DNA of 64,000 nucleotides from Eledone cirrhosa (taxonomy: Eukaryota), in the NCBI GenBank assembly GCA_964016885.1, contig OZ024742.1, positions 263,128,001 to 263,192,000 on the forward strand, in the 5' to 3' direction. A model generated the notes under the pieces. That model saw only the letters and a program-made list of their open reading frames with translations, ran no database searches and was not told the origin of the DNA. The first letter of the stretch is position 1, and every line of letters starts with the position of its first letter. Position numbers and translations under genes: made by a program. Below, in pieces: positions 3,763-37,976 of this stretch.

Positions 3763-3801
<39 letters not shown>

Positions 3802-3868
3802 AAAAACATGAGAAGAAAGAAGAATACTGCGTGGTTTACACTTGGGTTACATATGATAAAAATAGTCC

Positions 3869-3934
3869 TTCGTCAGTGATTTTCCAACCATCATTGGTAT
3901 TCTATCGCATTAAAAATCAGATACCTCAGGTTGG
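3869..3934 (-). ncRNA. Non-circularly permuted hammerhead, family A, mutated copy (GAAA reads AGAA)
   Basis: Same layout as 4393-4459, with perfect outer stem CCAACC/GGTTGG. Confidence 0.6.
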
Positions 3935-4392
3935 TGCGAGCAATAAAGAAAAAAAGTTATTGGGACCAGTAATCGCGTAAAGCGAGGGGGACAAGTAAAC
4001 AACATAGAAGGATAAAAACAAACCAAAGAAAGGGAATAAACAAGCAACATGGTAGTCCTGGTCAGCATAAGCTGGGTGGATTTCATGACCGTAAAGTAAA
4101 GACGTCCGACCTGAGTGAGATGTAAGCAAGAAGAGGCCCACTGTTAGCCAAACGGGTGGAAGTGAGAAGGGGGGAAACAGAGAGTGAGTGAGAGGAAGTG
4201 CGAGGAAGCAGTCAGTCGATAGAAAGTGTAACTGACAGAGGGGGCGAAAGAAGGGGGCGAAACAGAGAGAGCGGGGAAGCAGTAAGAGAGAAACAGACAA
4301 ACGCAGCTGAGGTCAATATATATAAAAAAACATGAGAAGAAAGAAGAATACTGCGTGGTTTGCACATGGGTTACATATGATAAAAATAGTCC

Positions 4393-4459
4393 TTCGTCAG
4401 TGATTTTTCCAACCATCATTGGTATTTCATCGCATTAAAAATCAGATACCTCAGGTTAG
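4393..4459 (-). ncRNA. Non-circularly permuted hammerhead with kink-turn, family A, intact core
   Basis: Minus strand: CTAACC-TGA-GGTA-TC^TGATTTTT-AATGCGA-T-GAAA-TACC-AATGAT-GGTTGG-AAAAATCA-CTGACGA-A. Confidence 0.75.
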
Positions 4460-4589
4460 TGCGAGCAATAATCTAAAAAAAGTAATTGGGACCAGTAATC
4501 GCGTAAAGCGAGGGGGACAAGTGAACAACATAGAAGGATATATATATATTATATATATATATACATATGTATATATATATATATATATA

Positions 4590-8375: not shown

Positions 8376-12837
<4,462 letters not shown>

Positions 12838-13035: not shown

Positions 13036-14271
13036 CAGGAGAACATGATATGAAGGCCAAAAAAAACACTTGTTGATAGTGCAGTTTTAAATCAACATAT
13101 GAAAAGTGGTTTTAGATTGATGTGTGATATTGGGAAAAATATTTTATTTAGAGAGGGGGGGAGAGAAAAGGATGAAAAGGGAAGGAGATGAGAGGGAGAG
13201 ATGGGTGATAGAGAGAAAGAGATAGTTTTTATAACAGAGAGGAGATATATTTTATATAGAGGGGTTGAAAACCGTTGGAAGATACTGTATAAATTAAAAA
13301 TTTTGAAAATTAACGAAGGGAGGATATGTGCGAGGAAAAAATATATTATATTTAGGGAGGGGTGGGGGTGGAAAGGATGAAAAAAAGGGGAGGAGATGAG
13401 AGTGAAGGTGGAAAGGGAGAGATGGGTGATAGAGAGAAAGAGATAGTTTTTATAACTGAGAAAAAGATATAATGTTTTAATATAGAGAGGTTGGGAACCG
13501 TTGGAAGATAATGTATAAATTAAAGGAATTTGAAAATTAACGAAGGGAAATTATGTATGGAGATAGAGAGAAAAAAATAACGAAGGGAGATTATGTATGG
13601 AGATAGAGAGAAAAAAAAAAAATAATAATTGTGGGTGAATATTCAAAAGGAGAAATGTAGGAATTTTAAAATTAGCAAAGAGAAAAAGTTTATGTATAGG
13701 ATTTGAGAAAAATAATGTGAAGTTAGAGTTTTTATATTGAATTCATATGTATTAATAATGAGTTCGTTGATGGGGAGAAAAAAATAATAATAAATTAAGG
13801 ATGAAATTGAGATTAAAAAGATTTATGATAGAGAGAAAAAATAATAATGATTGCGGATGAATACTCAAAATGTCAAAAACAAATGTTATTGTTTTACGAG
13901 GAGATATAATGAGGGTGATGAGTAAACGGGTATTATAGAGTGTATAATGCCCTTTAAAGTAAGGTAGATGGGTATATTTTAAAGAATATATGAGTATATA
14001 TTAAAAAAAATATATAATAATAAATTAAGGATGAAATTGAGATTAAAAAGATTTATGATAGAGGGAAAAAAATAATAATGATTGCGGATGAATATTCAAA
14101 ATGTCAAAAACAAATGTTATTGTTTTACGAGAAGATAGGATGAGGTAAATGAGTAAACGAGTACTATAGAGTGTATAATGCCCTTTAAAGTAAGGTAGAT
14201 GGGTATATTTTAAAGAGGTGTATGTATATGTGCCTTTGAGAAAAGATTCTAAATTGATAAAGAATTGAATA

Positions 14272-16314
14272 TTAACTGTATACTTTGTGAAAAGTTCTAT
14301 GGAATTTATGCAGGCAGATGGAAAACAAATCCGAGCGTCTATTTATTATGGATTCTAGGTTAGAGATAATGGTAAATTTTTCATTTAGGCAGAGATTACA
14401 GATTTTAGATAGAGAACTGTTCAAGTACGAGGATGCAGAAGAAATCTTTTTCCAAAAGATGTTATATTTAATGTTTTTGTCTTTTAAGGACCATATGAGT
14501 TCTGAGAGAGCAGTGTTAGTTCTTTTAAGTTTGTATTTGAAAGATGAATGATGATTATAGAGACGAGCTTTAAAAGAGGTGGAAGTGGAGCCAAAATAGG
14601 TGAAGGAGTTGGTGCTAGTTATAATTTTACATTCATAAATTAAGTTTTTATCGAGGCAATGGTTGTTGAGAGGACATTTATTTTTAATGCGGCAGTTGCA
14701 ATTAGAGAGATTATTAATGAGTGATCTAGTGTTATCTATAGAAGGAATTGGATTGGAGAAGTTGTTTGCGATAGGAATAATAGGAATAATAGTTTCTTGA
14801 TTTAGAGTTGGATTATGAACATTTAGCGAAGTTGTGTTTGACGTTGCATTTGGGTTTACAGAAGTTAGCCTAGGGTTTACAATGACGTCAGGAGTACTAT
14901 TATTGTTATTATGAGATTCAATATTGGAAGGAAGAGATTTAGTATTTAATATTTTGTTGTTGTGTTTAGAAATGATGTTGGAAATATTGGAGGATGTAGA
15001 ATACGAAAATTTAATGGTGTGTTTGTTAAATATTTTACTATAGATATGTGAGGGAGGGAAGCATTTATTTAAGGCACTAAAAAATAATTTAGGAATATTG
15101 TTATTAATAGAGATGGAGAAAGGAGCATTATACCAGATTATGTTTTTGTATCTAGGTCTTTTATTAAAATTATTGGAATGGTTATGATTAAATATTCTAC
15201 TGTAAGTTTTCCTAGAATTTGTTTCTTTATTATATTTGATTTTATCTGGATAGCCGGCTTTAGAAAGTGCGTTATTATAGTAATTGGCGTTAGCATCAAA
15301 GATGTTTTTATTAGAAGATATGTTAGATATTCTATTTCCAATATTATTAACTATAGCATTCTTGATATTGGCAGGATGGTTAGATTTAAAGTTAACATAA
15401 TTAAGATTCTCATTGTTTTTATGGTAAGGGTAATATAGGCCAGTGTCAAGATTAAGAGATACATCCAAGAAATTAGCTAGTTTGGTACTATTATCAAATT
15501 CAATTTTTAGGTTATGTTGGTTAAAGAGATTACGTATATTGTTCTTAATAATATTAAGTTTAACTATATTGCAATTTAGGATAGTAAAGAGTCCATCGTC
15601 ACGATAAATTCCACCGCGAAGTTGAGGAATTTTCCGACTCAAAGAGTTCAAAATGAAGATACCAATTAAATCAGTCAATTGGGATGAATCGGATGCTCCC
15701 ATTGTGATGTCGAAGTTGTTAGAGGTATCGGCTCTGGTCCAATATTCGTTGTTGAACTCTAGGATGGTTTTACGTGCGGTGAGGATGATGTGAAGTTCAT
15801 CTGTGGTGATGTCAGAATATTTAAGTGCGAAAGATAGAGCATTATTGAGAAGTGAAGGCGAAATGGAGGAATAGTAGCTGGCAATATCGAATTGAATAAA
15901 TTTTAGTTTGTTTTTATTATCCAATTTGTTGAACCAGCCAATCACTTCAGAAGTACCAAACCATAAATTTAGGTTTAAAGAAGAGCAATTAGAACTAACC
16001 TGTGGGATAATCCTATCCAAGATGGCTTTACTAACAACCCCCAGATCAGATTTAGAGGGGGCGATTAATCTAACAGGTAGTTCAGTGCGAAAATTGTTTT
16101 TGTGATCCTTGAGATTTATCCTCGGAGTTCTTGGGAGGAATGGTTCGGTCTTTTTTTCAATGCCAAGTTTTGACATAATCTCATAGGCTTCAAGGTTTAT
16201 GCATTCTAAATTTTCATGGTTGGTTTTACGATACTTTTTCCTAAGTTCCTTTAGGATAAGGTTGTTATAATTATCCTTGGAAATACCATATAGGTTATTG
16301 GTTTTGTCGATCAT
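14272..16314 (-). CDS. PLE reverse transcriptase + GIY-YIG endonuclease (Naiad-type), 5'-truncated, uninterrupted
   Basis: DKTNNLY, LKDHK, FIQFDIASYY, FDITMG, YRDDG, FLDV, SNHP, CNCR..CPL..CL, LIY..YFG, CNLC, CLH. The start Met arises at the junction. Confidence 0.9.
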   Translation of the reverse strand: MIDKTNNLYGISKDNYNNLILKELRKKYRKTNHENLECINLEAYEIMSKLGIEKKTEPFLPRTPRINLKDHKNNFRTELPVRLIAPSKSDLGVVSKAILDRIIPQVSSNCSSLNLNLWFGTSEVIGWFNKLDNKNKLKFIQFDIASYYSSISPSLLNNALSFALKYSDITTDELHIILTARKTILEFNNEYWTRADTSNNFDITMGASDSSQLTDLIGIFILNSLSRKIPQLRGGIYRDDGLFTILNCNIVKLNIIKNNIRNLFNQHNLKIEFDNSTKLANFLDVSLNLDTGLYYPYHKNNENLNYVNFKSNHPANIKNAIVNNIGNRISNISSNKNIFDANANYYNNALSKAGYPDKIKYNKETNSRKTYSRIFNHNHSNNFNKRPRYKNIIWYNAPFSISINNNIPKLFFSALNKCFPPSHIYSKIFNKHTIKFSYSTSSNISNIISKHNNKILNTKSLPSNIESHNNNNSTPDVIVNPRLTSVNPNATSNTTSLNVHNPTLNQETIIPIIPIANNFSNPIPSIDNTRSLINNLSNCNCRIKNKCPLNNHCLDKNLIYECKIITSTNSFTYFGSTSTSFKARLYNHHSSFKYKLKRTNTALSELIWSLKDKNIKYNIFWKKISSASSYLNSSLSKICNLCLNEKFTIISNLESIINRRSDLFSICLHKFHRTFHKVYS

Positions 16315-18534
16315 CTTTTTAATTCCAGACGAAATCCTCCTTCCAACAAAAATCTAGCACAATTCGAGGAAGAATTAACTAAAATTATAAAAAATCTTAA
16401 ATTCAAGAGATACCCTTACAAAGGACAAGAGCACCTTGTAAATCTCAAGAACACAATCTCTAACCTAAATTCCTCAAAAAATGTTTTAGTCCACTCTGAC
16501 AAAACCAATAACCTATATGGTATTTCCAAGGATAATTATAACAACCTTATCCTAAAGGAACTTAGGAAAAAGTATCGTAAAACCAACCATGAAAATTTAG
16601 AATGCATAAACCTTGAAGCCTATGAGATTATGTCAAAACTTGGCATTGAAAAAAAGACCGAACCATTCCTCCCAAGAACTCCGAGGATAAATCTCAAGGA
16701 TCACAAAAACAATTTTCGCACTGAACTACCTGTTAGATTAATCGCCCCCTCTAAATCTGATCTGGGGGTTGTTAGTAAAGCCATCTTGGATAGGATTATC
16801 CCACAGGTTAGTTCTAATTGCTCTTCTTTAAACCTAAATTTATGGTTTGGTACTTCTGAAGTGATTGGCTGGTTCAACAAATTGGATAATAAAAACAAAC
16901 TAAAATTTATTCAATTCGATATTGCCAGCTACTATTCCTCCATTTCGCCTTCACTTCTCAATAATGCTCTATCTTTCGCACTTAAATATTCTGACATCAC
17001 CACAGATGAACTTCACATCATCCTCACCGCACGTAAAACCATCCTAGAGTTCAACAACGAATATTGGACCAGAGCCGATACCTCTAACAACTTCGACATC
17101 ACAATGGGAGCATCCGATTCATCCCAATTGACTGATTTAATTGGTATCTTCATTTTGAACTCTTTGAGTCGGAAAATTCCTCAACTTCGCGGTGGAATTT
17201 ATCGTGACGATGGACTCTTTACTATCCTAAATTGCAATATAGTTAAACTTAATATTATTAAGAACAATATACGTAATCTCTTTAACCAACATAACCTAAA
17301 AATTGAATTTGATAATAGTACCAAACTAGCTAATTTCTTGGATGTATCTCTTAATCTTGACACTGGCCTATATTACCCTTACCATAAAAACAATGAGAAT
17401 CTTAATTATGTTAACTTTAAATCTAACCATCCTGCCAATATCAAGAATGCTATAGTTAATAATATTGGAAATAGAATATCTAACATATCTTCTAATAAAA
17501 ACATCTTTGATGCTAACGCCAATTACTATAATAACGCACTTTCTAAAGCCGGCTATCCAGATAAAATCAAATATAATAAAGAAACAAATTCTAGGAAAAC
17601 TTACAGTAGAATATTTAATCATAACCATTCCAATAATTTTAATAAAAGACCTAGATACAAAAACATAATCTGGTATAATGCTCCTTTCTCCATCTCTATT
17701 AATAACAATATTCCTAAATTATTTTTTAGTGCCTTAAATAAATGCTTCCCTCCCTCACATATCTATAGTAAAATATTTAACAAACACACCATTAAATTTT
17801 CGTATTCTACATCCTCCAATATTTCCAACATCATTTCTAAACACAACAACAAAATATTAAATACTAAATCTCTTCCTTCCAATATTGAATCTCATAATAA
17901 CAATAATAGTACTCCTGACGTCATTGTAAACCCTAGGCTAACTTCTGTAAACCCAAATGCAACGTCAAACACAACTTCGCTAAATGTTCATAATCCAACT
18001 CTAAATCAAGAAACTATTATTCCTATTATTCCTATCGCAAACAACTTCTCCAATCCAATTCCTTCTATAGATAACACTAGATCACTCATTAATAATCTCT
18101 CTAATTGCAACTGCCGCATTAAAAATAAATGTCCTCTCAACAACCATTGCCTCGATAAAAACTTAATTTATGAATGTAAAATTATAACTAGCACCAACTC
18201 CTTCACCTATTTTGGCTCCACTTCCACCTCTTTTAAAGCTCGTCTCTATAATCATCATTCATCTTTCAAATACAAACTTAAAAGAACTAACACTGCTCTC
18301 TCAGAACTCATATGGTCCTTAAAAGACAAAAACATTAAATATAACATCTTTTGGAAAAAGATTTCTTCTGCATCCTCGTACTTGAACAGTTCTCTATCTA
18401 AAATCTGTAATCTCTGCCTAAATGAAAAATTTACCATTATCTCTAACCTAGAATCCATAATAAATAGACGCTCGGATTTGTTTTCCATCTGCCTGCATAA
18501 ATTCCATAGAACTTTTCACAAAGTATACAGTTAA
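16309..18534 (+). CDS. PLE reverse transcriptase + GIY-YIG endonuclease (Naiad-type), 5'-truncated, uninterrupted
   Basis: Frame is open upstream of the tracked ATG at 16630 (FNSRRNPP..FEEEL..VHSDKTNNLY); protein identical to the left arm over the shared span. Confidence 0.9.
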   Translation, partial: DHLFNSRRNPPSNKNLAQFEEELTKIIKNLKFKRYPYKGQEHLVNLKNTISNLNSSKNVLVHSDKTNNLYGISKDNYNNLILKELRKKYRKTNHENLECINLEAYEIMSKLGIEKKTEPFLPRTPRINLKDHKNNFRTELPVRLIAPSKSDLGVVSKAILDRIIPQVSSNCSSLNLNLWFGTSEVIGWFNKLDNKNKLKFIQFDIASYYSSISPSLLNNALSFALKYSDITTDELHIILTARKTILEFNNEYWTRADTSNNFDITMGASDSSQLTDLIGIFILNSLSRKIPQLRGGIYRDDGLFTILNCNIVKLNIIKNNIRNLFNQHNLKIEFDNSTKLANFLDVSLNLDTGLYYPYHKNNENLNYVNFKSNHPANIKNAIVNNIGNRISNISSNKNIFDANANYYNNALSKAGYPDKIKYNKETNSRKTYSRIFNHNHSNNFNKRPRYKNIIWYNAPFSISINNNIPKLFFSALNKCFPPSHIYSKIFNKHTIKFSYSTSSNISNIISKHNNKILNTKSLPSNIESHNNNNSTPDVIVNPRLTSVNPNATSNTTSLNVHNPTLNQETIIPIIPIANNFSNPIPSIDNTRSLINNLSNCNCRIKNKCPLNNHCLDKNLIYECKIITSTNSFTYFGSTSTSFKARLYNHHSSFKYKLKRTNTALSELIWSLKDKNIKYNIFWKKISSASSYLNSSLSKICNLCLNEKFTIISNLESIINRRSDLFSICLHKFHRTFHKVYS

Positions 18535-19769
18535 TATTCAATTCTTTATCAATTTAGAATCTTTTCTCAAAGGCACATATACATACACCTCTTTAAAATA
18601 TACCCATCTACCTTACTTTAAAGGGCATTATACACTCTATAGTACTCGTTTACTCATTTACCTCATCCTATCTTCTCGTAAAACAATAACATTTGTTTTT
18701 GACATTTTGAATATTCATCCGCAATCATTATTATTTTTTTCCCTCTATCATAAATCTTTTTAATCTCAATTTCATCCTTAATTTATTATTATATATTTTT
18801 TTTAATATATACTCATATATTCTTTAAAATATACCCATCTACCTTACTTTAAAGGGCATTATACACTCTATAATACCCGTTTACTCATCACCCTCATTAT
18901 ATCTCCTCGTAAAACAATAACATTTGTTTTTGACATTTTGAGTATTCATCCGCAATCATTATTATTTTTTCTCTCTATCATAAATCTTTTTAATCTCAAT
19001 TTCATCCTTAATTTATTATTATTTTTTTCTCCCCATCAACGAACTCATTATTAATACATATGAATTCAATATAAAAACTCTAACTTCACATTATTTTTCT
19101 CAAATCCTATACATAAACTTTTTCTCTTTGCTAATTTTAAAATTCCTACATTTCTCCTTTTGAATATTCACCCACAATTATTATTTTTTTTTTTCTCTCT
19201 ATCTCCATACATAATCTCCCTTCGTTATTTTTTTCTCTCTATCTCCATACATAATTTCCCTTCGTTAATTTTCAAATTCCTTTAATTTATACATTATCTT
19301 CCAACGGTTCCCAACCTCTCTATATTAAAACATTATATCTTTTTCTCAGTTATAAAAACTATCTCTTTCTCTCTATCACCCATCTCTCCCTTTCCACCTT
19401 CACTCTCATCTCCTCCCCTTTTTTTCATCCTTTCCACCCCCACCCCTCCCTAAATATAATATATTTTTTCCTCGCACATATCCTCCCTTCGTTAATTTTC
19501 AAAATTTTTAATTTATACAATATCTTCCAACGGTTTTCAACCCCTCTATATAAAATATATCTCCTCTCTGTTATAAAAACTATCTCTTTCTCTCTATCAC
19601 CCATCTCTCCCTCTCATCTCCTTCCCTTTTCATCCTTTTCTCTCCCCCCCTCTCTAAATAAAATATTTTTCCCAATATCACACATCAATCTAAAACCACT
19701 TTTCATATGTTGATTTAAAACTGCACTATCAACAAGTGTTTTTTTTGGCCTTCATATCATGTTCTCCTG

Positions 19770-24004: not shown

Positions 24005-24070
24005 CTCGTCGGCTGTCTGCTGTGGGTCGCTGATGTTTTTGACGCATTAAAGACAGTACATCTCACCACA
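24005..24070 (-). ncRNA. Non-circularly permuted hammerhead, family B (core CCGACGA; GAAA mutated)
   Basis: TGTGG-TGA-GATG-TA-CTGTCT-ttaatgcgt-C-AAAAA-CATC-AGCGAC-CCACA-gc-AGACAG-CCGACGA-G. Confidence 0.6.
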
Positions 24071-24624
24071 CTGAGTTGATAACTAAGAGGAATAATTATC
24101 AGGGGAAAAAACAACAAAAACTGAGACAATAGCGAAGAGAACGACAGAAAAAGAAAATAAACAAAAGAAGAACATACTGATAGCGAGGGGGAAATACGAG
24201 ACAGTAGTACATGTAAGTTGCAGTAACCGATGGGAGAGAGGGAGGAGTTAAAAAGGAGACCGAACGTAAGCCCTGAATCCGTATTAACAGCACGCGGGAG
24301 AGCGAAGAGAAAATGGAAGTGAAAGGGGGGAAGTGGTAAGGGAGCAGAGAGAGAGGGGGAGGAGAAAGGTGATAGAGGATAAGAAAGAAACAGAATAAGT
24401 GAATGGGAGAGAGAGAGAGAGAGAGAGAGAGAAAGGGGGGAAGGAAAAGAGTTAACCCAAAATGGCAGAACTTAAGTTCAAAACCAGAATTAACAACAAG
24501 CGAGATAGAGTGGAGGTTACAGCAATAAATTAATATGAATTAAAAGTGACAAAGGCGCTGTGTGGTTACTAATAAATATTATTTAGAAAACGTAAGAGAA
24601 ATACAAACATGAGGACAATTCCCG

Positions 24625-24689
24625 CTCTTCGGCTGTCTGCTGTGGGTCGCTGATGTTTTGACGCATTAAAGACAGTACATCTCACCACA
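24625..24689 (-). ncRNA. Non-circularly permuted hammerhead, family B (core CCGAAGA; GAAA reads AAAA)
   Basis: Same layout; the G-to-A change lies at a CpG. Confidence 0.6.
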
Positions 24690-26362
24690 CTGAGTTGATA
24701 ACTAAGAGGAAGAGTTATTAGGGAAGAAAACAACAACAAAAACAGAGATGATAGCGAAGAGAACGACAAATATATATTTAGTTCAAGATAAAAAAAGATG
24801 GCACACACATTAAACCATTACACTGTCTTATTAGCTTCATGTATATTTCTACATGCTAGCATGGTACCCTTCTTCTTCGTCTTCGTCTTCTTGCTAATAA
24901 AAGAAACCATTATTACTGGCTTTAGTTCATTACGATCTGAGTTAATATTCTGAGATCGACTTTCATTCTTCCGGGTTCGATAAAATGGTGTCAATTTAAT
25001 CGAATAATTCCGTCCCCACATTTCTGGCTATGTGTTTGAATTGGAAACAACACATCATATAAAAAGGCGAGGGGAGAGAGCAAAAGAGATACAAAGAGAC
25101 TCAATTGGTTGAAGGGAGAGTACACAAACTGAGTAGAGTGGCAGACAGTGAGATAGAGAGGCAAATACGTATAGCATTAGTACAAAGTTAAATTTCATTT
25201 TCAACCTTCTTTTTTTCATCAATGGAATAGACATATATATACTTTTCCTGAATTTATTTGTTTCGTTTTCTCAAATCGGTAGAAATATATATTTTTAGCG
25301 TATATTAAATTTGTAATTTTTTTTTTCAATCTACGGGGAGATATGTACATTTTACATGTTTGCATAATCAATGTTTAAGTTGTAGCTACGTAATTATCGT
25401 ATATCTGTAATGTTACAGGTGTAGTGAATTCATTTATATTTCATTTACGCATTTTTATTTATTTATCTACTGTTACTAACAGTGTACTATGGCGAGTAAC
25501 ATTCTGGTATCCTTATATTACGTGTCCTCAATAATGTATTGTCTTTGTATGTATGAATATATGTATCTGTGTGTATTACAAAAAAGAAAGAGAAAAAAAT
25601 TATATAGCGAAAGCAAGGGAAAATGTAGAGAGTGACAGACTCTACAACCCAGCTGCACCGAGTGGACAAAATGGCGACGGTATTGCCACGAAGAACAGCC
25701 AGTGACCTCCGCCGCATCAGACACTCTACCTCGCGGAGCCCTTGCTCAGGCGGGATGTACTCCTCCTAGTTTTGCAGAGGAAGACAGCAGTTCGGGGTTC
25801 GAGGACACAAGTCGTCTTAACGACGACTGGCATTAAAAGAAAACGGTTGATCAAATCTAGGTATTTAGTTATCTCTCTTTCGCGTTACTGGCGCAAACAC
25901 CTGGTTCGTGCCTGAAACGACAAATGTTAGAGGTGGGGAACGTGTCGCAGCACGTGGCGTCCCAGATCAGTGATTTACCTCCCTCGCTTTTTGAAAAGGG
26001 CATCCCTTATAATTTATTGAGTTCAAGGAATAGATTCCAGGCTCTTTATAAATCAGCATAAAGAGAGAGAAGTACACATAGGGATGTGTTCAATCATAGG
26101 AGATCAAAAACCGCCAGAGTGATGAACATATTGTCTACGAAAGGAAAGGTGAATACAAATCAATTAAAAGAATAAATATATATATATACATATGCTTATG
26201 TGTGTGTGTGTGTGTGTGTGTGTATACACACATTTTTATATTGTTCGTGAGTTTCTCTTTCGCTTGAAAATTTCAACCGTGAGGAGAACATTGTAACTCT
26301 TCCAATAGAAGAGCAGTGTTTTGGCGTATGACACTATCCTAAAAAAACTAAATTAATATACA

Positions 26363-28184: not shown

Positions 28185-29658
28185 CTCAAGGAGGGCAAGG
28201 CTCATGGAGAAGATGGAGTGGCATCAGAGGTGATGAAGAGGTGTGATTTTGATGATATCATCCTGGGGTTCTGTAACGGGGCACTGGAGAAAAGAGTTGC
28301 CCCGAATCAGTGGAGGATCAGTAACATCGTCCCAGTGCCAAAGAAGGGAGATCTCTCTAACACCAACAACTACCGGGGGATCTCACTGGCGTCACTTGTG
28401 GCAAAGACCCTCAACGGGATGATTCTTAACAGGATCCAGCCTGAGATGGAGAAGAAGCTCAGGGACAACCAGAACGGCTTCAGAGAGGGTAGATCAACCA
28501 CTAGTCACATCCTGATGCTGAGGAGGATATTAGAGGGAGCTAGAGCAAAGTGCCTTCCTGCGGTCATGGTTTTCATTGACTTTAGGAAGGCCTTTGATTC
28601 TGTGGACCGTTACTGCCTGATGAAGATCTTACAGGCTTATGGAATCCCCAAGAGGATAGTGGACCTGATATCACTGCTCTACACCAACACCAAAGCCCAA
28701 GTCATTACACCTGATGGGATGACAGAGTTCTTTGAGATACTGGCTGGAGTGCTCCAGGGAGATACATTGGCTCCCTATCTTTTTGTCATCGTAGTGGACT
28801 ATTGTATGCGCCTTGCACTGGGGAAACACCAGGACTCTGGCTTTACTGTAGCACCGGCTCAGAGCAGGAGAGTTAGGGCGAAAAAGGTATCGGATGCTGA
28901 ATTTGCCGACGACATAGTTTTGGTGACAAATACAGTGAAGGAGGCAGAGGATTTGATGCGGGAGGTTGAGACTGTGTCGATGAGTGTGGGGCTGAGAATG
29001 AATGAGACTAAAACAAAATATCTGGTAGAGAATGTTGAGAAGCCAGAGGGGATCACTAATGTAGGCGGGAAGCCGCTGGAATTGGTTGAGGACTTCCTGT
29101 ATTTGGGAGCAAGGATTGGGAATACGGAGGATGATGTGGTTGAGAGGAAGAGCAAGGCCTGGGCGGCGTGCCACAGCTTGAGATCGGTGTGGAAGTCGGA
29201 CCTTCGTAGAGACCTGAAAATCCGCCTCTTCATTGCTGTAGTGGAGTCTGTGCTGCTGTATGGGTCTGAGACTTGGACACTGACCAAGAAACTCACTCAG
29301 ATGGTGGATGGGTGCTACACGAGAATGCTGAGGATGGCTCTGAACATTAATCAGTATACACTGAGGATGAAAAACTCAGAGCTGTATGGGAGCATCCCAA
29401 AAGTCAGCTCAAAAGTGACACAGAGGAGACTGAGGTTGGCTGGACATGCTCACCGACATCCAGAGTTGACATTGCACTCAGTGCTCCTTTGGGAGCCCCT
29501 ACATGGACAGACTAGAAGAGGAAGACCAAGGTTAACGTATGTTGATGCCCTAAGGACAGACACTGGTCTGTTGGAGATGCAGGACATGGCAGCGATAATG
29601 AGGGACAGAGACCGCTGGAGAGAACTCGTCCATGGATCTCGGGAATTTTACCCGCCTT

Positions 29659-29660
<2 letters not shown>
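28185..29660 (+). mobile_element. 5'-truncated RTE-clade LINE with an intact RT frame (ORF 28218-29660)
   Basis: [55 protein letters not shown]. Confidence 0.93.
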
Positions 29661-30747
<1,087 letters not shown>

Positions 30748-37610: not shown

Positions 37611-37790
37611 TGTCCCATTTGACGAAAGTCGATCGACTGTCGATATATGTTTTCTTCTGTTTTTTTCTTCTTTTTCTCTTCTGTTTCTTTTTCTTTTTCT
37701 CTTCTGTTTATTTTCTTTTTCTGTCGTTCTCTTCACTATCGTCTCTTTTTTTTATTCTCTAATAACTATTCTTCTGAGTTATTAACGCAG

Positions 37791-37855
37791 TGTGGTGAGA
37801 TGTACTGTCTTTAATGCGACGAAACATCAGCGCCCCACAGCAGACAGCCAAAGAG
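37791..37855 (+). ncRNA. Non-circularly permuted hammerhead, family B (GAAA intact; core CCAAAGA)
   Basis: TGTGG-TGA-GATG-TA-CTGTCT-ttaatgcga-C-GAAA-CATC-agcgcc-CCACA-gc-AGACAG-CCAAAGA-G. Confidence 0.62.
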
Positions 37856-37976
37856 CGGGAATTGTCCTTAAGTTTGCGTTTCTCTTATGTTTTTCTAAAC
37901 AATATATATGTATGTGTGTATATGTATCTGTGTATATGAATAAATATATATATATGGTTTTCTGGAGTATAATATT

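Follow-up and report, generated by a model that had tools for sequence, protein, structure and literature searches.

The family-A motif and its surroundings

The window, a 64-kb (64,000-nt) stretch of Eledone cirrhosa DNA, carries on its minus strand, from 4464 to 4393, a motif that holds a hammerhead core in the block order S-G-C. Read 5′ to 3′ from 4464, it consists of a 5-nt strand, the 6-nt strand of an outer helix (P4), U-G-A, the 5′ strand of stem III and the U-C cut site, followed by the 5′ strand of stem I, a short linker, the 3′ strand of stem II, GAAA, the 3′ strand of stem III, AAU-GA-U, the 3′ strand of P4, the 3′ strand of stem I and CUGACGA (Table 1). Between stem III and the 6-bp P4, AAU-GA-U lies opposite U-GA, exactly as the original prediction had read 4409-4459 for this repeat family (family A). 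The result is a 3-nt bulge followed by G.A, A.G and U.U, with stem III closed by C:G, which is the standard k-turn sequence as defined in the available text of PMC8191799.

Table 1. Coordinates of the family-A motif, listed 5′ to 3′, and of related features in the window
Feature	Position	Strand	Basis and remarks
P5, 5′ strand	4489..4493	minus	Short helix closing the flanks at 5′ and 3′; weak support; MFE folds of window copy and L002; same register in most families by eye
P0 hairpin	4466..4488	minus	Predicted hairpin directly 5′ of stem II
Stem II, 5′ strand	4460..4464	minus	From the motif's 5′ end (block C split); pairs with 4430-4434; 89.4% of cells paired, double changes in 3/5 pairs
P4, 5′ strand (NC helix of k-turn)	4454..4459	minus	97.1% paired; double changes in 5/6 pairs
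k-turn non-bulged strand (3n U, 2n G, 1n A)	4451..4453	minus	G2n and A1n invariant in 10/10 family majorities
Stem III, 5′ strand (C helix of k-turn; -1n G)	4447..4450	minus	95.6% paired; double changes in 3/4 pairs; -1b:-1n C:G in 10/10 families
U16.1-C17, predicted cut 3′ of 4445	4445..4446	minus	Analogy with the hammerhead core
Stem I, 5′ strand	4437..4444	minus	Pairs with 4401-4408; first 5 pairs 100% paired, double changes 5/5
I-II linker (AA), stem II 3′ strand, position 11.1	4429..4436	minus	Sequence; alignment of 17
GAAA (G12-A15.1)	4425..4428	minus	Sequence; also retained in LINE copies found by protein search
Stem III, 3′ strand	4421..4424	minus	Covariation alignment
k-turn bulged strand: L1-L3 AAU (4418-4420), G1b and A2b (4416-4417), 3b U (4415)	4415..4420	minus	G1b/A2b invariant in 17/17 aligned
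P4, 3′ strand	4409..4414	minus	Continues straight into stem I; covariation alignment
Stem I, 3′ strand	4401..4408	minus	Sequence; window copy carries one extra A
CUGACGA core (4394-4400), position 10.1	4393..4400	minus	Sequence
P5, 3′ strand	4388..4392	minus	Partner of 4489..4493; MFE folds
ORF-less tandem repeat (family A) between (TA)n tracts	3800..4540	minus	Sequence
Second tandem family-A copy	3868..3939	minus	k-turn intact, GAAA damaged; period ~525 nt
Two tandem family-B copies	24005..24695 (24005-24076, 24624-24695)	minus	Same fold; read AGC-GA-C / U-GA
Decayed family-B copy	37785..37856	plus	AGC-GC-C; A2b and G5 lost
Type I-like CUGANGA sites	51027(-)/51118(+), 38074(-)/38205(+), 43674(+), 5685(-)/6835(-)/6885(+)		By eye

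The family-A repeat has 1168 first-look candidates in the genome. Family B is an older family, with 87-90% identity to the window copy, and its majority core is CCGANGA (U4C) in the window copies and loci L031-L060. Its k-turn sequence, as given by the original prediction, was found in both minus-strand copies of the window and is the majority form among 14 distinct family-B copies. The copy near 37791, for which AGCGCC had been noted, does read AGC-GC-C. Since its catalytic core is damaged besides the k-turn, we regard it as a decayed copy.

Several other features of the window were recorded. Further CUGANGA sites, often arranged as inverted pairs, resemble by eye type I hammerheads, canonical or minimal, that belong to other repeats. 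There is a perfect 2.7-kb inverted repeat (13612-16308 / 16498-19194) with 189 nt between its arms, and 9322-10600 and 28860-30138 form an inverted pair that is 95% alike and looks like an RTE-type LINE RT fragment.

Conservation and covariation of the motif

In the 3.0-Gb genome of this animal, a pattern made of the core, the linker and the fixed spacings of the layout (16 and 23 nt), with the k-turn letters left free, gave 16,359 exact matches, and the reversed control gave 0. The layout is therefore not a product of chance. When GA was required on both strands, 14,556 of the matches (89%) remained. From fetched loci, some of which had first been fetched via a GA-containing pattern, 115 distinct copies were mined without demanding GA, and both GA dinucleotides are kept in 107 of them. 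The GA/GA pairs are thus conserved across copies, in agreement with expectation.

The 115 copies fall into 16 clusters, 10 of which have at least three members and are treated here as families. The majorities of all ten families agree in G1b, A2b, G2n, A1n and C:G at -1b:-1n, an invariance to be read against the background of the alignment: of its 71 columns 25 do not vary, and since the filter imposed 10 of these, 15 of 61 unfiltered columns are invariant anyway. The neighbouring positions vary: 3b:3n is U.U in four families, C.U in four, U.G in one and A.A in one; the bulge takes six different forms; its third base, L3, is U in six families and C, G or A otherwise; and 4b:4n changes from family to family. 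Two of the six single-member clusters have U at 2n. A further family (L482:1501-1558) with unrelated stems and U:A at -1b:-1n keeps the k-turn, and one copy on a foreign contig (L389, see below) has C:G at 3b:3n. Across the ten families we therefore see conserved purines beside a variable bulge and variable flanks, with the 3-nt bulge and the tandem G.A and A.G placed between two helices. With bulge length and all four purines constant, the assignment as a standard k-turn holds. The likeness to box C/D that had also been pointed out does apply to family A; it is specific to that family, since 3b:3n and 4b:4n differ between families.

Standard simple k-turns (Kt-7, U4, box C/D, SAM-I) share with this motif the 3-nt bulge, the G.A and A.G pairs and C:G at -1b:-1n. 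Here, however, the C helix is stem III of a hammerhead and there is no box C/D guide context, and 3b:3n and 4b:4n, which are fixed in box C/D and U4, are variable.

The helices were examined in an alignment of 17 real copies, made up of the 16 cluster representatives (one of which is L190, from a metagenome contig) and L389. The predicted pairs are formed in 94.4% of 357 cells, and double changes occur in 17 of the 21 pairs, giving four covarying helices (stems I, II, III and P4), all of which vary in sequence among the 10 repeat families. Only 0-1 of 500 shuffles scored as high, a significance that is overstated as the families are related, and slid controls paired 23-48%. The hammerhead stems I, II and III thus all show covariation, stem II being split, and they surround the CUGANGA core (with U4C in family B), GAAA and U-H. 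H17 is A or C in 114 of the 115 copies passing a filter that itself excluded G, and in 12 of the 17 sequences the base that follows CUGANGA is paired with position 11.1.

Thermodynamic folding recovers less. The window copy folds no better than its shuffles (z 0.28) and its MFE structure lacks stem III and P4; pseudoknot-free folding recovered stem III together with P4 in two of six copies (L002 and L398). Outside the four helices, P0 is predicted at the same place, with changed stems, in most family representatives and in L190, L389 and L400, and a copy-by-copy shuffle test of P5, with the L400 row disregarded, gave no significance. In summary, the motif is real, conserved and structurally meaningful.

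Carriers of the motif

The short carriers are ORF-less repeats of ~470-780 nt that lie in (TA)n, often in tandem or inverted, with one motif per unit. Arrays reach at least 8 copies, one of them consisting of 8 units of 511-513 nt. Tandem units that lack ORFs and have a single ribozyme are the organization of non-LTR retrozymes, and the available texts on animal non-LTR retrozymes (Cervera and de la Pena 2020, PMC7229834; Li et al. bioRxiv 10.64898/2026.07.22.740005) describe the same tandem units with one hammerhead each and low GC. Those retrozymes, however, have type I hammerheads and RNAs of 170-400 nt, whereas the longer repeats here carry the SGC/k-turn fold. The hammerhead of the present repeats is not of type I: its order is S-G-C, and Rfam gave no match at gathering score over the whole window. 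Six loci compared with Rfam gave 89 weak matches, none to a hammerhead or a k-turn RNA.

LINEs carry the fold as well. A search of the genome with the protein of the RT/REL ORF described below for the foreign contigs gave 147 matches, and 21 of 30 fetched loci belong to a single LINE family encoding an RT and a restriction-like endonuclease (REL). The RT + REL LINEs are presumably HERO-like, and the named relatives of their protein come from fishes and amphioxus. In most copies of the main family, which were found by protein alone, the 3′ UTR contains the fold with an intact core and with A.A at 2b:2n, a known non-standard k-turn pair according to the available text of PMC5061560. Three further loci (L414, L422 and L423) look by eye like a second LINE family with standard GA/GA. 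Comparison by blastn showed no shared sequence between the family-A unit and the LINEs (best E 0.017).

The same spacings with new stems were also found on two foreign contigs, in both cases just after the end of an RT/REL ORF. One is L190, the single real copy among the 119 metagenome matches listed; the other is L389 (CAMQSH010000302.1), the single real copy among 31 GTDB matches. The contig of L389 sits in a GTDB 'Brevinema' MAG, yet it contains the end of a LINE, most closely matched among named proteins by those of teleosts, along with tRNA copies, and it is likely animal host DNA in a bacterial bin. Among viral contigs none of the pattern matches pair (0 of 29 and 0 of 38), and a REL protein scan confirmed 0 of 2.

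Naiad Penelope-like elements, reported in the available text of bioRxiv 10.1101/2021.04.23.441226 to be without hammerheads, share with the short repeats (TA)n targets and tandem and inverted insertions (Craig et al. 2021, PMC8557442, as far as available). Of the 54 Naiad consensus tails in the accessible PMC8557442 supplement, 14 were examined by eye, and 10 of these gave no resolvable fold. The octopus consensi Naiad_Ovul and Naiad_Omin end in the same fold: by eye, the tails preceding them show the fold and its k-turn, with bulge AAU or AGU, U:A as the -1 pair and a P0 loop resembling the one in the short repeats. In the tails preceding Naiad-4_Chem and Naiad_Adux the order is seemingly kept, and a hairpin junction or an A/U-rich loop replaces the k-turn (by eye). 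The tail before Naiad_Plae appears by eye to have the S-G-C order and GA/GA pairs with the bulge on the opposite strand. A search of the genome for Naiad-spaced copies gave 33 matches against 9 in the control, and one of 30 fetched pairs well (L482). No Naiad ORF was linked to the short repeats in this genome; as their mobiliser, Naiad would be likelier than the LINEs. PLE ORFs adjoining four loci were considered as carriers and rejected; they look like separate insertions, and the one at L455/L456 has its own canonical type I hammerhead.

The k-turn as a probable hinge, and the alternatives

Through P4, stem III is connected with the far ends of stems I and II: the 3′ strand of P4 feeds stem I and its 5′ strand stem II, with linkers of only 0-2 nt. 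A back-of-envelope estimate, which is not a model, places the end of P4 about 30 Å from the end of stem II, axis to axis, at a bend of 50 degrees, 56 Å at 120 degrees and 64 Å at 180 degrees. Because the linkers have just 0-2 nt and the gap is ~30 Å at 50 degrees versus 56-64 Å at wider angles, only a sharp kink would fit. This P4 connectivity and rough geometry support the proposal in the original prediction that the kink redirects the 3′ strand to close stem I; its role would be wider, as stem II is closed too. We infer that the kink closes a cage round the catalytic core, and the geometry suggests that a bend of ~50 degrees would be needed for the closure.

In our judgement the k-turn is therefore probably an architectural hinge. 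Bending at the end of stem III, it would bring P4 back to where stems I and II have their far ends and so close a scrambled ribozyme that would cut retroelement RNA. Turning a helix back for a long-range contact is shared with the SAM-I and RNase P k-turns. With P4 bent back, the scrambled S, G and C parts would close and the RNA would cut itself, by analogy with known hammerheads at the predicted site after H17; self-cleavage would then release monomers of ~470-780 nt, as in retrozymes. The 5′ junctions give no clear sign of cutting in vivo: 1873 copies lack G at both -1n and -2n, and in 30 fetched loci (28 separate places) most junctions fall on TA microhomology at the cut site or linker; at 2 of the 28 places (L425/L426 and L428, which are inverted copies) the junction is exactly at the predicted cut site without TA. 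Magnesium and tertiary closure are likely enough to fold the hinge. Binding of Snu13/15.5K may assist, U.U families such as A being the most plausible cases, but the protein is not expected to be required.

The nearest known relatives are the type-SGC hammerheads (HRIMA-1 and variants; Eckert et al. 2023, PMC10085705), with which, going by the available text of that paper, the motif shares the S-G-C order, a full core and a short linker from stem I to stem II. The block order and a helix bridging stems I and II agree with that type. Their 'I' helix bridges the other strands of stems I and II, as P4 does here. The present motif differs, as compared by text, in that both strands of the bridging helix join stem III via a k-turn, and in that the RNA ends have moved into block C, assumed to be uninterruptible in PMC10085705, so that stem II takes its 5′ strand from the motif's 5′ end. 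After A9 no more than one base pairs, and in L389 and the main LINE family the partner of even that single base comes from the 5′ end (by eye). The motif also has the extra P0 hairpin and occurs in an animal genome, whereas the available text of PMC10085705 reports type-SGC hammerheads from no known organism bar one GCS candidate. In the same text, the direct connection between the ends of stem III and of the I-II helix is the one point of non-obvious 3D compatibility, and the words 'kink' and 'k-turn' do not occur in its main or supplementary text. The available part of PMC13725137 likewise has no k-turn. In the literature searched, which covered subscription journals thinly, we found no published description of this k-turn/hammerhead fold, which is accordingly a variant of the type-SGC hammerhead absent from those papers.

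Could the k-turn instead be a protein switch? The original prediction suggested that a host k-turn-binding protein could stimulate cleavage, and the sequences speak both for and against this. In such a scheme the ribozyme would cut slowly unless bent by host Snu13/15.5K (or L30e), and the processing of retroelement RNA would be coupled to a host RNP protein. According to the available texts, k-turns with 3b=C or 3n=G fold in Mg2+ alone, those with Watson-Crick pairs do not and those with U.U are intermediate (PMC5061560, PMC4382518, PMC5689011); an isolated k-turn with U.U and with G:C at 4b:4n folds very poorly with ions alone (PMC5689011). Family A belongs to this impaired class, so Snu13 could help it. 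Four of the ten families have U.U, L3 is most often U, L7Ae binding folds all k-turn variants (PMC5061560, as available), and SGC hammerheads are slow in vitro, with a helper protein mooted (available text of PMC10085705). On the other hand, five of the ten families fit the rules for protein-free folding and none has a Watson-Crick 3b:3n, unlike U4, so that judged by sequence the set resembles riboswitch hinges more than it does U4; L3 is not restricted to U; tertiary contacts alone can fold k-turns (PMC4382518, in its available text); and in two other Naiad tails the place of the k-turn seems to be taken by a hairpin junction or an A/U-rich loop (by eye, from the accessible consensi). Such a switch would thus be a rather unlikely arrangement. 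We are similarly doubtful of its extension, namely that a protein-gated caged hammerhead recruiting Snu13/15.5K might be common to Naiad PLEs, REL LINEs and non-autonomous repeats across animals and be the ribozyme that Naiads reportedly lack.

A second alternative accepts the fold and takes it mainly as a 3′-end recognition structure for the retroelement RT protein, with cutting slow, blocked or incidental. In the LINE 3′ UTRs (L395-L419), where a 12-bp helix closes the motif, the predicted cut lies ~95 nt upstream of the genomic 3′ end, within the sequence that is copied into the genome, implying that inserted copies came from uncut or still base-paired RNA. No LINE copy truncated between stems III and II was found, and the ORF-less repeats, too, end downstream of the motif. 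Against this reading, the catalytic positions and U-H are all kept in the LINE copies found without the DNA pattern and across unrelated elements, and one motif per tandem unit fits monomer release. We give RT recognition as the main function a low probability.

That the GA/GA match is mere inheritance from one ancestor or a box C/D fragment, without structural role, is very improbable: the genomic families are indeed related and family A resembles box C/D, but the four purines and the bulge length of 3 nt stay constant amid freely changing neighbours, the same loop recurs in elements with unrelated stems, and covariation and purine conservation already largely refute it. As a box C/D snoRNA motif the sequence was rejected, with its strands in D-then-C order, G for the last A of box C, variable 3b:3n and 4b:4n, and no Rfam snoRNA match over the motif in loci of its own genome.

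The hinge reading offers an answer to an open puzzle of the non-circularly permuted hammerheads, namely how the helix bridging stems I and II reaches stem III. With it, the range of such hammerheads extends beyond environmental RNA to the retroelements of animals, with over 16,000 copies in a genome, and the Naiad tails point to a hammerhead that canonical searches have missed. If the prediction holds, ribozyme switches controlled by L7Ae could readily build on a small self-cleaving RNA that has a natural k-turn.
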